Assembly (NCBI RefSeq): GCF_057098645.1 | Contig: NZ_CM169472.1 | DNA length: 64,000 bases | Strand: one strand, 5' to 3' | Part shown: in pieces, positions 48,570 through 54,507 of the stretch | Numbering within the stretch: the first letter of the stretch is position 1 | Layout of the letters: the number at the start of each line of letters is the position of its first letter | Notes under the pieces: model-generated | Seen by the model: the letters and a program-made list of their open reading frames with translations, nothing else | Database searches by the model: none | What the model was told of the DNA's origin: nothing | Made by a program: the position numbers and the translations under genes

Positions 48570-48586
48570 CTGGCGTAAATCTTGCC
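48570..48586 (+). promoter_or_regulatory. Candidate sigma-54 promoter upstream of xdhA
   Basis: CTGGCGTAAATCTTGCC: GG at 48572-48573 and GC at 48584-48585 with canonical 12-bp register, about 55 bp upstream of xdhA ATG. Confidence 0.35.
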
Positions 48587-48680
48587 TGCTTAGACTAAAT
48601 CTTTGCCATAAGAACCAAATGTTCAAATCGAGGGGATTTCTATGGAAGCGCGGGAAGCAACCGCTACGGGTGAATCATGC

Positions 48681-50939
48681 ATGCGCGTCGATGCCATTGC
48701 TAAGGTCACCGGGCGGGCACGATATACTGACGATTATGTTATGGCGGGCATGTGTTATGCGAAATATGTACGTAGCCCTATCGCACATGGTTATGCCGTA
48801 AGTATTAATGATGAACAAGCCAGAAGTTTACCAGGCGTACTGGCGATTTTTACCTGGGAAGATGTGCCTGATATCCCATTCGCTACAGCTGGGCATGCAT
48901 GGACACTTGACGAAAACAAGCGCGATACCGCCGATCGCGCACTGCTAACTCGCCATGTTCGTCATCATGGTGACGCCGTTGCCATCGTCGTGGCCCGCGA
49001 TGAACTCACGGCAGAAAAAGCGGCGCAATTGGTCAGCATTGAGTGGCAAGAATTACCCGTTATCACCACGCCAGAAGCGGCGCTGGCAGAGGACGCTGCA
49101 CCAATCCATAACGGCGGCAATTTACTGAAACAAAGCACGATGTCGACGGGCAATGTCCAACAAACAATCGATGCCGCCGACTACCAGGTACAGGGGCACT
49201 ATCAGACCCCCGTTATTCAACATTGTCACATGGAAAGCGTAACATCGCTGGCGTGGATGGAGGATGACTCGCGAATTACCATCGTTTCCAGCACCCAGAT
49301 CCCGCACATTGTTCGCCGCGTGGTTGGTCAGGCACTGGATATTCCCTGGTCATGCGTACGAGTCATCAAACCATTTGTCGGTGGCGGTTTTGGTAATAAA
49401 CAGGATGTACTGGAAGAGCCAATGGCGGCATTCCTGACCAGCAAGCTTGGCGGCATTCCGGTGAAAGTTTCCCTTAGCCGTGAAGAGTGTTTCCTCGCAA
49501 CCCGTACCCGCCACGCTTTTACTATTGACGGGCAAATGGGCGTGAACCGCGACGGAACATTGAAAGGTTATAGTCTGGATGTTCTGTCTAACACCGGCGC
49601 TTATGCATCTCACGGGCACTCCATCGCTTCTGCGGGGGGGAATAAAGTCGCTTACCTTTATCCTCGTTGTGCCTACGCTTACAGTTCAAAGACCTGCTAT
49701 ACCAACCTCCCCTCGGCTGGTGCGATGCGTGGTTATGGCGCGCCACAAGTCGTATTTGCCGTTGAGTCTATGCTTGATGACGCCGCGACAGCGTTAGGTA
49801 TTGATCCTGTTGAAATTCGTTTACGCAACGCCGCACGCGAAGGAGATGCTAATCCGCTCACGGGCAAACGTATTTACAGCGCAGGGTTGCCGGAGTGTCT
49901 TGAAAAAGGCCGGAAAATCTTTGAATGGGAAAAACGCCGTGCAGAGTGCCAGAACCAGCAAGGCAATTTACGCCGCGGCGTTGGCGTCGCCTGTTTTAGC
50001 TACACCTCTAACACCTGGCCTGTCGGCGTAGAAATAGCAGGCGTGCGCCTTCTGATGAATCAGGATGGAACCATCAACGTGCAAAGCGGCGCGACGGAAA
50101 TCGGTCAGGGTGCCGATACCGTCTTCTCGCAAATGGTGGCAGAAACCGTGGGGGTTCCGGTCAGCGACGTTCGCGTTATTTCAACACAAGATACCGATGT
50201 TACGCCGTTCGATCCCGGCGCATTTGCCTCACGCCAGAGCTATGTTGCCGCGCCTGCGCTGCGCAGTGCAGCACTGTTATTAAAAGAGAAAATCATCGCT
50301 CACGCCGCAGTCATGCTACATCAGTCAGCGATGAATCTGACCCTGATAAAAGGCCATATCGTGCTGGTTGAGCGACCGGAAGAGCCGTTAATGTCGTTAA
50401 AAGATTTGGCGATGGACGCTTTCTACCACCCTGAACGCGGCGGGCAGCTCTCTGCTGAAAGCTCCATCAAAACCACCACTAACCCACCGGCGTTCGGCTG
50501 TACCTTTGTTGATCTGACGGTCGATATTGCGCTGTGCAAAGTCACCATCAACCGCATCCTCAACGTTCATGATTCGGGCCATATTCTTAATCCGCTACTG
50601 GCAGAAGGTCAGGTACACGGCGGAATGGGAATGGGCATTGGCTGGGCGCTATTTGAAGAAATGATCATCGATGCAAAAAGCGGCGTGGTCCGTAACCCCA
50701 ATCTGCTGGATTACAAAATGCCGACCATGCCGGATCTGCCACAACTGGAAAGCGCGTTCGTCGAAATCAATGAGCCGCAATCCGCATACGGACATAAGTC
50801 ACTGGGTGAGCCACCAATAATTCCTGTTGCCGCTGCTATTCGTAACGCGGTGAAGATGGCTACCGGTGTTGCAATCAATACACTGCCGCTGACGCCAAAA
50901 CGGTTATATGAAGAGTTCCATCTGGCAGGATTGATTTGA
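48681..50939 (+). CDS. xdhA: Xanthine dehydrogenase molybdenum-binding subunit, 752 aa from MRVDAIAKVTG
   Basis: Track ORF 48642..50939; molybdopterin-binding aldehyde oxidase/XDH family; xdhABC synteny. Confidence 0.9.
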   Translation: MRVDAIAKVTGRARYTDDYVMAGMCYAKYVRSPIAHGYAVSINDEQARSLPGVLAIFTWEDVPDIPFATAGHAWTLDENKRDTADRALLTRHVRHHGDAVAIVVARDELTAEKAAQLVSIEWQELPVITTPEAALAEDAAPIHNGGNLLKQSTMSTGNVQQTIDAADYQVQGHYQTPVIQHCHMESVTSLAWMEDDSRITIVSSTQIPHIVRRVVGQALDIPWSCVRVIKPFVGGGFGNKQDVLEEPMAAFLTSKLGGIPVKVSLSREECFLATRTRHAFTIDGQMGVNRDGTLKGYSLDVLSNTGAYASHGHSIASAGGNKVAYLYPRCAYAYSSKTCYTNLPSAGAMRGYGAPQVVFAVESMLDDAATALGIDPVEIRLRNAAREGDANPLTGKRIYSAGLPECLEKGRKIFEWEKRRAECQNQQGNLRRGVGVACFSYTSNTWPVGVEIAGVRLLMNQDGTINVQSGATEIGQGADTVFSQMVAETVGVPVSDVRVISTQDTDVTPFDPGAFASRQSYVAAPALRSAALLLKEKIIAHAAVMLHQSAMNLTLIKGHIVLVERPEEPLMSLKDLAMDAFYHPERGGQLSAESSIKTTTNPPAFGCTFVDLTVDIALCKVTINRILNVHDSGHILNPLLAEGQVHGGMGMGIGWALFEEMIIDAKSGVVRNPNLLDYKMPTMPDLPQLESAFVEINEPQSAYGHKSLGEPPIIPVAAAIRNAVKMATGVAINTLPLTPKRLYEEFHLAGLI

Positions 50940-50949
50940 GGATAACATC

Positions 50950-52343: not shown

Positions 52344-54122
52344 TTATGTGTTTAACAACTCATATTTCTTAATCTTGCGATAGAGCGTAGCAATGCCGAT
52401 GCCCAGTTCATCAGCAACTTGCTTCTTGCTGTTATGACGTGAAAGCGCCTCGCGGATCATTTGCTTTTCCATCTCCTCCAGCGCCGTGCCGCCCGCATCA
52501 TCGAGTGACAGGTGCGCCTCAGTGACCTCTGTTACATCACTTTGCTCCGTTGTGCCATTATTCAGCAGATTTGGCGGCAATAGCGTGCTGTCGATAACTT
52601 CACCTGAAGGAACAACGTTAACCAGATATTCCATCAAATTGCTTAACTCGCGCAGGTTTCCGGGCCAACGATGCTTACGCAATATTTCGACGACATCGGG
52701 AGCAATGCCAGGATAAACCGATCCCAGACGACGGGTATGCAGATGTAAAAAGTAATGCACCAGTAGTTCAATATCTTCCTGACGTTCACGCAGCGGTGGC
52801 AGAGTTATCGGGATAACATTAAGTCGGTAGAAGAGATCTTCGCGGAATTTACCTTCGGCAATGAACTGGGCCAAATTCTGGTTAGTTGCAGAAATGATGC
52901 GAATGTCGACTTGTATTGGGCTACTGGCACCAATCGGCAGAATTTCACGTGCCTCAATAGCGCGCAGTAATTTAGCCTGCAACATTAATGGCATATCACC
53001 TATTTCATCGAGAAACAGCGTGCCCGTATTCGCCGCCTGAATCAACCCTGTTTTACCGTTGGCAGAAGCGCCAGTAAATGCGCCTTTAACATAACCGAAC
53101 AGTTCGCTCTCCAGAAGCTGCTCCGGAATCGCGGCACAGTTGATAGCAATAAAGGGTTTATTCCGTCTTCCGCTCAACTTATGGATTGCACGGGCGACAA
53201 CTTCTTTACCCGTGCCGCTTTCACCAACCACCATAACGCTGGATGGGCTGGGTGCAATACGGCTAATGAGTCGTTTTAATTGCCGCATAACACGGCACTC
53301 GCCAACCAATTGTTCAATATGCGGTTCATCAGGTGCATTTGCTACAGAAAAACTGGTATGCGATTGGTGAAACGCCATTAAAAATAATTGTCGGCCCTGA
53401 ATGTTATGCAATTGACCAATGATTAATTCACTTTTATCGTCCCACGAAACAATATGCTGCATATGTCCATGGGTAAAATTACTCTCAAATGTTAATGGTC
53501 TGAAACGGATAGGTTTCCCAATAATATTATTTTGCACAACACCAAGTGTTTTTAAGGCAGTCTGATTAACAAACTGAACCCGATTTTCATCATCTACAAC
53601 TAATACGCCCTGATCCATATTATCGATCATGGTCGCGAATATTTTACTGATGTTATCTCCTGGCCCCTGATCCTCCAGAAGTTTCGAAACAAAAATGGTG
53701 GATATATGACGAACATAATCAGAAAATTCGCGTAAATTATCACTGATATGCTCTTGTTGCTCGTGGGTAACGGCAATCAAACTTATCACCCCAACACAAC
53801 GATCCTGTAAAATGACAGGCGTACCCAGAAATGCTTTTTCGCGGCAATTTTCTTTACTATCGCAACCTTCGCAAAGGGGATCGAAGCGAGACTGTGTCAC
53901 AACTTTTTCAGTTTTCGTTTCCAGGACGTGGCGGAGCAGGCGTGAGTTGCCGCTCAACTGGCGACCAAGAAACTTCCCATACGCGCCCGTTCCGGCGACG
54001 CGACACAAGTTTTCATCAACGATCTCAACCTCAAGCTGCAAAACGCTGGCAAGCATTCTGGCAAAACGCTGAATTGTCGGTTGAATTTGCATCAATACTG
54101 ACTGCGTAGTAGCAAGCTCCAT
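52344..54122 (-). CDS. ygeV: Sigma-54-dependent transcriptional activator (sensory domains + AAA+ + Fis-type HTH), 592 aa
   Basis: Track ORF with Walker A GESGTGKE, GAFTGA motif, C-terminal HTH. Confidence 0.9.
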   Translation of the reverse strand: MELATTQSVLMQIQPTIQRFARMLASVLQLEVEIVDENLCRVAGTGAYGKFLGRQLSGNSRLLRHVLETKTEKVVTQSRFDPLCEGCDSKENCREKAFLGTPVILQDRCVGVISLIAVTHEQQEHISDNLREFSDYVRHISTIFVSKLLEDQGPGDNISKIFATMIDNMDQGVLVVDDENRVQFVNQTALKTLGVVQNNIIGKPIRFRPLTFESNFTHGHMQHIVSWDDKSELIIGQLHNIQGRQLFLMAFHQSHTSFSVANAPDEPHIEQLVGECRVMRQLKRLISRIAPSPSSVMVVGESGTGKEVVARAIHKLSGRRNKPFIAINCAAIPEQLLESELFGYVKGAFTGASANGKTGLIQAANTGTLFLDEIGDMPLMLQAKLLRAIEAREILPIGASSPIQVDIRIISATNQNLAQFIAEGKFREDLFYRLNVIPITLPPLRERQEDIELLVHYFLHLHTRRLGSVYPGIAPDVVEILRKHRWPGNLRELSNLMEYLVNVVPSGEVIDSTLLPPNLLNNGTTEQSDVTEVTEAHLSLDDAGGTALEEMEKQMIREALSRHNSKKQVADELGIGIATLYRKIKKYELLNT

Positions 54123-54490
54123 AGCTTTACCTTCCAGACTTACTTAAAAGTCGATCATTGAAGACGTTGATGGTTCACAGATCATGATGATATTAACTCA
54201 GGCGAAATTGGCTTTGATAAAAACATAAGATTTTTATAACTTTCTAATGAAATTATGGAAGAGATATCACATTTCTATATCAATATGAGAATTACGGCGG
54301 TGAGTTTATCAAACTGACGAGGGATAGCCTGCCCCTTTATCTTATTTCTGATACTTAGCAGCAAATAAATAACGCAATAAAAAAAGCCAAACGTTTTCGT
54401 ATTTTACAAACAACCCGAAGCTGGCATCAATTTGTGATCAACCCCACACATTATCCGTCAAATTAGTCTTTTGCAGCCCCGTGGATAATT

Positions 54491-54507
54491 CTGGCACACT
54501 TATTGTT
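54491..54507 (+). promoter_or_regulatory. Weak sigma-54-like motif upstream of ygeW (-24 perfect, -12 GT instead of GC)
   Basis: CTGGCACACTTATTGTT about 90 bp upstream of ygeW ATG; correct spacing but non-canonical -12 element. Confidence 0.2.

Follow-up and report, generated by a model that had tools for sequence, protein, structure and literature searches.

At the NtrC-dependent promoter glnAp2, polymerase rests at the −24/−12 elements as a closed complex, and NtrC activates it by DNA looping from paired activator sites that lie more than 100 bp upstream and approximately two helical turns apart. A second described system, DioR, is a computationally reconstructed regulon of sigma-54 and its enhancer-binding protein (EBP) in the Clostridiales (Nie et al. 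2019, PMC6615313). It comprises dpaL, ygeW-ygfK-ssnA-ygeY, yqeB/yqeC, pbuX, and xdhABC, and its enhancer sites, which are predictions rather than experimental results, include ATTTATCATAATGATAAGG, TATTATCATTTTGATAATA, and AATTCTCGTATTGATAAAA. In Escherichia coli itself, chromatin immunoprecipitation sequencing (ChIP-seq) has placed sigma-54 at xdhA (OS29) and ygeW (OS30), and also at ygfK (OS31), ygfT (OS32), and inside yqeC (IS34) (Bonocora et al. 2015, PMC4591121). Here, we analyze a 64,000-nucleotide stretch of DNA (contig NZ_CM169472.1 of RefSeq assembly GCF_057098645.1; hereafter, the window) in which ygeV, the gene for a sigma-54 activator, stands between the xdhABC and ygeW operons. The motifs upstream of xdhA and ygeW are genuine sigma-54 promoters of these two operons. 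Neither the observation nor this reading of it is new, because the motifs are identical to OS29 and OS30 and Reitzer & Schneider 2001 (cited in Lamoureux 2023) had already put forward such promoters upstream of xdhABC and ygeWXY. What is new is a conserved palindrome that these promoters share, which is probably the operator through which YgeV governs the purine/urate cluster.

The two promoters and the genes that surround them are arranged as follows.

48570 to 48586, plus strand: xdhA sigma-54 promoter (−24/−12), CTGGCGTAAATCTTGCC, assigned from position weight matrix (PWM) score, ChIP-seq identity, and conservation; predicted transcription start site (TSS) ~48597.
54491 to 54507, plus strand: ygeW sigma-54 promoter, CTGGCACACTTATTGTT, with GT at −12, assigned from PWM score, ChIP-seq identity, and conservation; predicted TSS ~54518.
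48642 to 52304, plus strand: xdhA-xdhB-xdhC operon (xanthine dehydrogenase), from open reading frames and RefSeq annotation.
52344 to 54122, minus strand: ygeV, encoding the sigma-54 EBP, from Pfam matches and the GAFTGA motif in its translation.
54598 to 60729, plus strand: ygeW-ygeX(dpaL)-ygeY-hyuA-yqeA(arcC) operon, from open reading frames and RefSeq annotation; ygeW ATG at 54598.

Positions 48200 to 54700 match E. coli O145 RM9872 at 100% identity, and 5216 of 5426 complete E. coli genomes contain the segment. An earlier note on this DNA, made from the letters alone, had described motifs about 55 bp upstream of xdhA and about 90 bp upstream of ygeW, and both are where it put them. The 3′ end of CTGGCGTAAATCTTGCC lies 55 bp before the ATG at 48642, the xdhA start that RefSeq gives in this strain, and 94 bp before the K-12 start at 48681; CTGGCACACTTATTGTT lies 91 bp before the ygeW ATG. 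The N6 spacer given for both motifs was a miscount, as the gap is N5 in each. The xdhA site thus reads TGGCGT-N5-TTGCC, with GG and GC 10 bp apart in the canonical GG-N10-GC register that had been claimed for it, and the ygeW site reads TGGCAC-N5-TTGT, in which GG keeps its register and −12 carries GT in place of GC.

A consensus search proved a poor instrument for judging these sites. At up to two mismatches, TGGCAC-N5-TTGCW gave 50 matches in the window versus 43.6 expected, and the xdhA site, which carries three mismatches, was missed altogether. Because this search was not discriminating, we replaced it with a PWM built from 128 of the 135 ChIP-seq sites of Bonocora et al. (2015, Tables 1 and 2), the seven from the window and its gene cluster having been excluded. 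Scored in this way, as the earlier note had proposed, neither motif scores low: the xdhA site reaches 15.6 bits and ranks first on both strands of the window, the ygeW site reaches 13.6 bits and ranks fourth, and each falls within the range of leave-one-out scores for sites bound in vivo (median, 13.9 bits; 5th percentile, 9.8). Scores this high are expected 0.8 (xdhA) and 3.0 (ygeW) times by chance across the whole window, so the score alone is not significant, and the weight of the case comes from position, conservation, and published occupancy. In the correct orientation within an upstream spacer of ~400 to 475 bp, the chance expectation is ~0.002 for the xdhA site and ~0.01 for the ygeW site.

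The published occupancy is exact. CTGGCGTAAATCTTGCC is letter for letter ChIP-seq site OS29, with a fold-above-threshold of 11 and marked in Table 1 of Bonocora et al. as experimentally confirmed in EcoCyc, and CTGGCACACTTATTGTT is letter for letter OS30, with a fold-above-threshold of 3 (PMC4591121). The lower occupancy of OS30 fits the description of the ygeW motif as the weaker of the two. Orientation and target genes are likewise the same as in our analysis; the published work assigned no enhancer sites and did not demonstrate the activator. The start-to-gene distances of 84 bp (xdhA) and 80 bp (ygeW) given in that study reproduce the window coordinates if transcription starts at ~48597 and ~54518 (PMC4591121). 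Genomic systematic evolution of ligands by exponential enrichment (gSELEX) also placed an RpoN-holoenzyme peak between ygeV and ygeW, with values of 53% in the absence of NtrC and 55% in its presence (Shimada et al. 2021).

Conservation was assessed across YgeV-ortholog loci from ten other enterobacterial genera, which together with E. coli make 11; xdhABC lies beside ygeV in five of them. In all five, the xdhA promoter is kept as CTGGCGTA(A/C)(A/T)T(C/T)TTGCC, 38 to 55 bp before the ATG, and in all 11 the ygeW promoter is kept as YTGGCAC(A/G)(C/G)TTATTGTT, 79 to 106 bp before the ATG, with the unusual GT at −12 retained throughout. The spacer DNA that flanks both promoters is poorly conserved across genera, and the single-nucleotide polymorphisms of divergent E. 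coli strains avoid both promoters. That the motifs simply fit a loose consensus by chance might be argued from the expectation of 0.8 and 3 such scores per 64 kb and from the failure of the two-mismatch consensus to be enriched. ChIP-seq peaks, however, fall on exactly these 17-mers, which are invariant across genera whose YgeV N termini (265 residues) are just 60 to 88% identical to the E. coli protein and which E. coli polymorphisms leave alone. Occupancy and conservation have already refuted this explanation, to which we accord practically no credence.

Two other motifs were considered and set aside. A second GG motif at 54421 to 54436, GCTGGCATCAATTTGT, is one base short in its spacer, has a poor score, and lacks conservation, and we do not regard it as a promoter; a sigma-54 promoter for ygeV itself was rejected in E. 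coli, where the best score toward that gene is just 1.1 bits. No Rfam match for a riboswitch or leader RNA at an E value of ≤1 was found in either 5′ region.

The second line of evidence concerns the DNA upstream of the promoters. A search there for inverted-repeat enhancer sites, also proposed in the earlier note, recovered T(A/C)TCA-N3-TGA(T/G)A upstream of both. This 13-bp palindrome lies 130 to 235 bp upstream of each of the cluster's four sigma-54 promoters, those of xdhA, ygeW, ygfK, and ygfT. Scores on a matrix for this upstream activating sequence (UAS) accompany the candidate sites, none of which is stranded.

48439 to 48451: xdhA candidate enhancer site 1, TATCACATTGATT; center ~−152, UAS PWM 15.1 bits.
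48460 to 48472: xdhA candidate enhancer site 2, ACTCATATTGATA; center ~−131, UAS PWM 17.0 bits.
54278 to 54290: ygeW main candidate enhancer, TATCAATATGAGA; center ~−234 from the TSS, UAS PWM 19.2 bits.
54180 to 54192: weaker enhancer-like site near the ygeV start, GATCATGATGATA; ~−332 from the ygeW TSS, UAS PWM 11.7 bits.
54307 to 54319: conserved half-palindrome, TATCAAACTGACG (TTTATCAAnnTG(A/G)CG), from the 11-genus alignment; center ~−205 from the ygeW TSS, PWM 5.8 bits.

The positions of these sites are held from genus to genus. The two xdhA sites are spaced 21 bp apart, and in all five genera they hold their offsets from the start of CTGGCGTA, −129 to −131 for site 1 and −108 to −110 for site 2. 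The main ygeW copy also stands ~160 bp upstream of the ygeV ATG, within a conserved block of ~80 bp. Its offset from TGGCAC is −214 to −217 in eight genera out of nine compared, and a copy falls within −198 to −217 in all 11; it is a perfect TATCA-N3-TGATA in four genera and is invariant in a divergent E. coli strain. The block GATGATACTA at the weaker site near the ygeV start is conserved in 11 genera. At the other promoters, palindrome centers fall at −202 and −182 (ygfK) and at −199 (ygfT) relative to the predicted starts, and eight genera keep the ygfK promoter together with its palindrome, at a separation of either 161 or 181 to 183 bp, a difference of two helical turns.

The palindrome is also concentrated where the promoters are. 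Three exact copies of the 12-mer CTCATATTGATA stand in the 45-kb cluster, one upstream of xdhA and one each in the ygeV-ygeW and ygfT-uacT spacers; a two-mismatch copy is present in the mocA-ygfK spacer, and the observed counts were reached in none of 100 shuffles. A symmetrized UAS PWM, trained on the xdhA and ygeW sites only, finds its best match in the 45 kb in the mocA-ygfK spacer (20.8 bits) and a joint second-best match in the ygfT-uacT spacer (19.2 bits). The top four matches fall in the four sigma-54 spacers, of which two supplied no training sites, and six matches of at least 15 bits were observed in the cluster versus 0.17 expected.

The reach of the palindrome beyond the Enterobacteria points to the protein that probably binds it. 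Our diverse set of YgeV homologues came from a search seeded with the Enterobacter ortholog, an earlier search having returned near-identical E. coli proteins only; a contig search with full-length YgeV gave mostly generic AAA+ patterns and one true ortholog (L002). In the loci of full-length YgeV homologues from a Clostridium metagenome-assembled genome and from Sedimentibacter, the palindrome adjoins strong sigma-54 promoters, which precede genes for xanthine permease as well as xdhABC-like, ygeX/ygeW, and ygeY-like genes, and these homologues carry the E. coli YgeV recognition helix, LGIGIATLYRK. Palindrome sites were absent from the loci of homologues with a different recognition helix. 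We assign the palindrome to YgeV, as its candidate operator, because it co-occurs with ygeV/dioR and because the recognition helix is conserved with it.

The sigma-54 promoters could instead be driven by another activator, such as NtrC, with the palindrome serving as the operator of an unrelated transcription factor. YgeV-DNA binding is here a prediction, the nitrogen-related character of purine catabolism suits NtrC as a theme, and at yqeC (see below) a TCTCA-N3-TGAGA variant sits downstream of a promoter, which is unusual for an enhancer. The palindrome, however, is unlike the consensus sites published for NtrC, NorR, FhlA, and GlrR. The motif travels with the ygeV/dioR gene from Clostridia to Enterobacteria and tracks the recognition helix, ygeV lies between its presumed target operons in 11 genera, and RpoN holoenzyme occupies the ygeV/ygeW spacer alike with and without NtrC. 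We consider another activator unlikely.

At each of the two loci, a further unstranded element lies between enhancer and promoter.

54433 to 54448: CRP-like site, TGTGATCAACCCCACA; center ~−77.5 from the ygeW TSS, one mismatch to TGTGA-N6-TCACA.
48520 to 48537: conserved block between the xdhA enhancer and promoter, TTTTTTAAnGnCATCACA, from the 5-genus alignment; center ~−67.

The CRP-like site matches nine of ten core positions, and across 11 genera both of its half-sites persist as the GTGA and C.CA columns. According to a 2025 paper, a "native Crp-binding site" is present between ygeV and ygeW, and urate degradation is glucose repressed unless this spacer is swapped for constitutive promoters (PMC12507026). 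The site at ygeW may bend the DNA for looping and link the operon to glucose repression. The TTTTTTAAnGnCATCACA block lies one helical turn nearer the start than the CRP-like site does at ygeW and, by eye, offers no good match to the consensus of either IHF or CRP. Reading the sequence between enhancer and promoter by eye, we found no match to the IHF consensus WATCAA-N4-TTR at either locus. In the ygeW 5′ leader (54560 to 54597), 11 genera conserve a block, GCCnGTCATTnCACnACCAGGA, that immediately precedes the start codon and exceeds what a Shine-Dalgarno sequence needs.

Taken together, these data are best explained if xdhA and ygeW have sigma-54 promoters that YgeV probably activates through the upstream palindromes. 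Under this model, sigma-54 RNA polymerase would form a closed complex on the GG at −24 and the GC at −12 (GT at ygeW), a step that published ChIP-seq and gSELEX data show. Opening of the complex would need an AAA+ activator, for which YgeV, encoded between both operons, is the most likely candidate. YgeV would bind the palindromes centered ~131 and ~152 bp (xdhA) and ~234 bp (ygeW) upstream of the starts and contact polymerase by DNA looping, and ATP hydrolysis together with the GAFTGA loop would melt the promoter. At ygeW, CRP at ~−77 may bend the DNA for looping and tie expression to glucose repression. ygfK and ygfT, each with a palindrome ~200 bp upstream, would join xdhA and ygeW in a single YgeV regulon that serves the anaerobic catabolism of purines and uric acid.

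Published genetic and expression data support the link to YgeV. xdhABC and ygeWXY are members of the "YgeV iModulon" (PMC10602906), and ygeV reportedly takes part in the anaerobic consumption of urate (Iwadate & Kato 2019, cited by Liu et al.). The earlier note had suggested that either motif could connect ygeV to purine catabolism or to the ygeW-yqeA operon. The connection itself is supported by the iModulon membership, by the reported role in urate consumption, and by the palindrome, which both promoters have at conserved upstream positions and which matches the predicted DioR enhancer; the two promoters, offered there as alternatives, both seem to belong to one regulon. The remark in that note that the targets of YgeV are poorly defined is only partly current. 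Overall, the interpretation that it offered is supported.

Several observations weigh against our reading. The xdhA upstream region is absent from the gSELEX list (Shimada et al. 2021), ChIP occupancy at ygeW is low (OS30), and Bonocora et al. stress that sigma-54 binding is no proof of productive transcription (PMC4591121). A 2026 Reg-Seq (massively parallel reporter) study of YgeV-iModulon promoters saw no consistent footprints under the conditions tested, and we found in the literature neither a published YgeV binding site nor rpoN- or ygeV-dependent starts at xdhA or ygeW. An alternative role for the CRP-like site would be at a sigma-70 promoter of ygeV. The training sites of the UAS PWM were chosen by eye, and consequently only the ygfK, ygfT, and clostridial matches are independent.

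Some of these points favor an explanation in which sigma-54 holoenzyme is bound at both sites in a poised or nonproductive state and the operons are transcribed from sigma-70 promoters, possibly CRP dependent. Bonocora et al. speak of "binding sites" rather than promoters, and many of their 135 are intragenic (PMC4591121); the glucose repression of urate degradation, the CRP site in the ygeV-ygeW spacer, and the Reg-Seq result lend it further weight. The two sites, however, lie in the sense orientation 38 to 106 bp from start codons and are invariant in five and 11 genera while their flanks diverge, each is paired with a conserved enhancer-type palindrome, and the xdhA promoter carries its EcoCyc confirmation. 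Sigma-70-like matches in both spacers are no commoner than in shuffles, and no such match is suitably positioned to serve xdhA or ygeW. We therefore judge nonproductive binding to be quite improbable and prefer activation by YgeV at both promoters.

Further sites suggest that this regulon may be larger than the four promoters discussed above. Two of them lie inside yqeC.

62976 to 62992, minus strand: sigma-54 site inside yqeC, facing yqeB, TGAGCACGAACCTTGCA; ChIP-seq site IS34, fold-above-threshold of 7 (PMC4591121).
62736 to 62748, unstranded: palindrome inside yqeC, TCTCACATTGAGA; fifth-best UAS PWM match in the 45-kb cluster.

The sigma-54 site is kept as TGAGCA(C/T)GAACCTTGCA in five other genera, with one-base variants in two more, and it probably belongs to the same regulon. 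TCTCACATTGAGA is positioned 244 bp downstream of this site and ~165 bp before yqeB, and a related palindrome occupies the matching place in ten other loci, taking the form TCTCA-N3-TGAGA in eight of the ten. It may act as a downstream enhancer or as an operator of yqeB. In the genera that have the yqeC-internal site, the palindrome 244 bp downstream is TCTCA-N3-TGAGA except in Raoultella, where it is TCTCAAAATGATA. Two species without yqeC have an intergenic sigma-54 motif, TCAGCATA(A/G)ATATTGCA, followed 63 to 77 bp on by TCTCAAACTGAGA.

At uacT, ~15.7 kb past the end of the window, we observed a candidate weak sigma-54 promoter, CTGGCACTCCACGAGCA (positions 33717 to 33733, plus strand, of E. 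coli locus L001), which scores 5.6 bits and has GAGCA at −12. Its predicted start site lies 58 bp from the ATG, and the palindrome shared by the ygfT-uacT pair would sit at −143 for uacT and at −199 for ygfT. A uacT-like permease gene in Pluralibacter (locus L088) carries CTGGCACCGGATAAGCA at ~1607 to 1623 on the minus strand, a 9.8-bit motif 58 bp from the ATG with a palindrome ~155 bp upstream. Kluyvera, Raoultella, and Intestinirhabdus do not have xdhABC next to ygeV; there, a gene for a major facilitator superfamily (MFS) transporter follows ygeV instead. This MFS gene has its own sigma-54 motif of 13.1 to 16.0 bits (L082, 11965 to 11981; L083, 11979 to 11995; L086, 12154 to 12170), with a TATCACTCTGAGA palindrome 140 to 360 bp upstream.

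Elsewhere in the window, the second-ranked match to the sigma-54 PWM is the published ptrA site. Matches besides the two promoters lie at 3530 to 3546 (minus strand), 8858 to 8874 (plus strand), and 24467 to 24483 (minus strand), and the intragenic ChIP-seq sites in ptrA (IS33) and recC (IA22) were recovered. The match at 24467 to 24483, TTGGCGCTGGAATTGCT, scores 14.4 bits and is absent from the high-stringency ChIP-seq list. ATGGCGCATTTTGTGCA, at 51648 to 51664 on the minus strand and thus antisense within xdhB, scores 12.4 bits and lies ~200 bp from a gSELEX entry at the xdhB/xdhC junction (Shimada et al. 2021, Table 5).

The architecture of YgeV itself is that of an EBP. Its domains run GAF-PAS-AAA+(GAFTGA)-HTH_8, with Pfam matches to Sigma54_activat (PF00158, 7.8e-71), HTH_8 (PF02954, 1.4e-13), and PAS_8, and KGAFTGA is present in the translation. 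A model of the N terminus (predicted local distance difference test [pLDDT], 74) likewise shows GAF plus PAS, its best Protein Data Bank matches being DhaR(N) chains 4lry and 4lrx and GAF domains. YgeV, also called IsrR, was termed an "orphan RR" in a 2022 paper (PMC9426417). We considered and rejected its classification as a two-component response regulator: there is no Response_reg match, the N terminus is GAF plus PAS, and, strictly speaking, a protein without a receiver domain does not count as a response regulator. The GAF domain contains three near-invariant cysteines, CxxCx5C (C84, C87, and C93), that are conserved from E. coli to Clostridia and may constitute a redox sensor of the metal or Fe-S type.

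The promoters described here control the E. coli genes for anaerobic breakdown of xanthine and uric acid. The ygeW-yqeA operon has its role in anaerobic uric acid degradation, and the pathway has been linked to the clearance of host urate by gut bacteria and is being engineered into probiotics against hyperuricemia (PMC12507026; Liu 2022 preprint). With a precise and conserved candidate operator, the YgeV binding site becomes directly accessible, and the part of YgeV in purine metabolism can more easily be told apart from the indole and virulence role proposed for it.

How does this cluster compare with known systems? One close likeness is to DioR. The two have a gene set in common that includes dpaL(ygeX), ygeW, ygfK, ssnA, ygeY, yqeB/yqeC, xdhABC, and purine permeases. 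The DioR enhancer core is TTATCA-N3-TGATAA, with TCTCA/TGAGA variants in Clostridioides difficile, and lies 70 to 240 bp upstream of TTGGCAT-N5-TTGCT promoters. The regulators are 35 to 39% identical over their full length, CxxCx5C is present in both, and the recognition helix is identical in some members. There are differences as well: clostridial dioR has its own sigma-54 promoter (seen at 9370 in locus L003), whereas E. coli ygeV is without one, and the E. coli promoters are further from consensus (GT at −12 of ygeW, TGGCGT at xdhA), with a CRP-like site added at ygeW. We lean modestly toward a more encompassing scenario. The YgeV palindrome would be the DioR enhancer itself, its pairing with the regulator kept across Firmicutes and Proteobacteria, and it would serve a six-promoter regulon of xdhA, ygeW, ygfK, ygfT, a weak and so far unrecognized uacT promoter (CTGGCAC-N5-GAGCA), and the yqeC-internal promoter with its intragenic downstream palindrome. 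CRP would replace IHF as the bender at ygeW and thereby impose glucose repression.

The remaining comparisons illuminate single features of the locus. pspA and pspG, the PspF-dependent promoters of sites OS15 and OS40, also carry TTGT instead of TTGC at −12 and are bound in vivo (PMC4591121), and the ygeW −12 variant is therefore of a functional type; they differ from ygeW in activator, enhancer, and physiology. Judged from the structural model, YgeV appears to resemble DhaR, an E. coli regulator of the GAF-PAS-AAA+-HTH type, in its tandem GAF-PAS sensor without a receiver domain. DhaR, however, acts at a sigma-70 promoter and senses its protein partners DhaK and DhaL, whereas YgeV retains GAFTGA and has the three near-invariant GAF cysteines. 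The enhancer-looping scheme of NtrC at glnAp2 is, by analogy, the model that we adopt for the YgeV promoters. NtrC, a phosphorylated response regulator with TGCACC-type sites, differs from YgeV, a sensor of the ligand or redox type with an A/T-rich palindrome, and at ygeW the bend may be supplied by CRP rather than by IHF.

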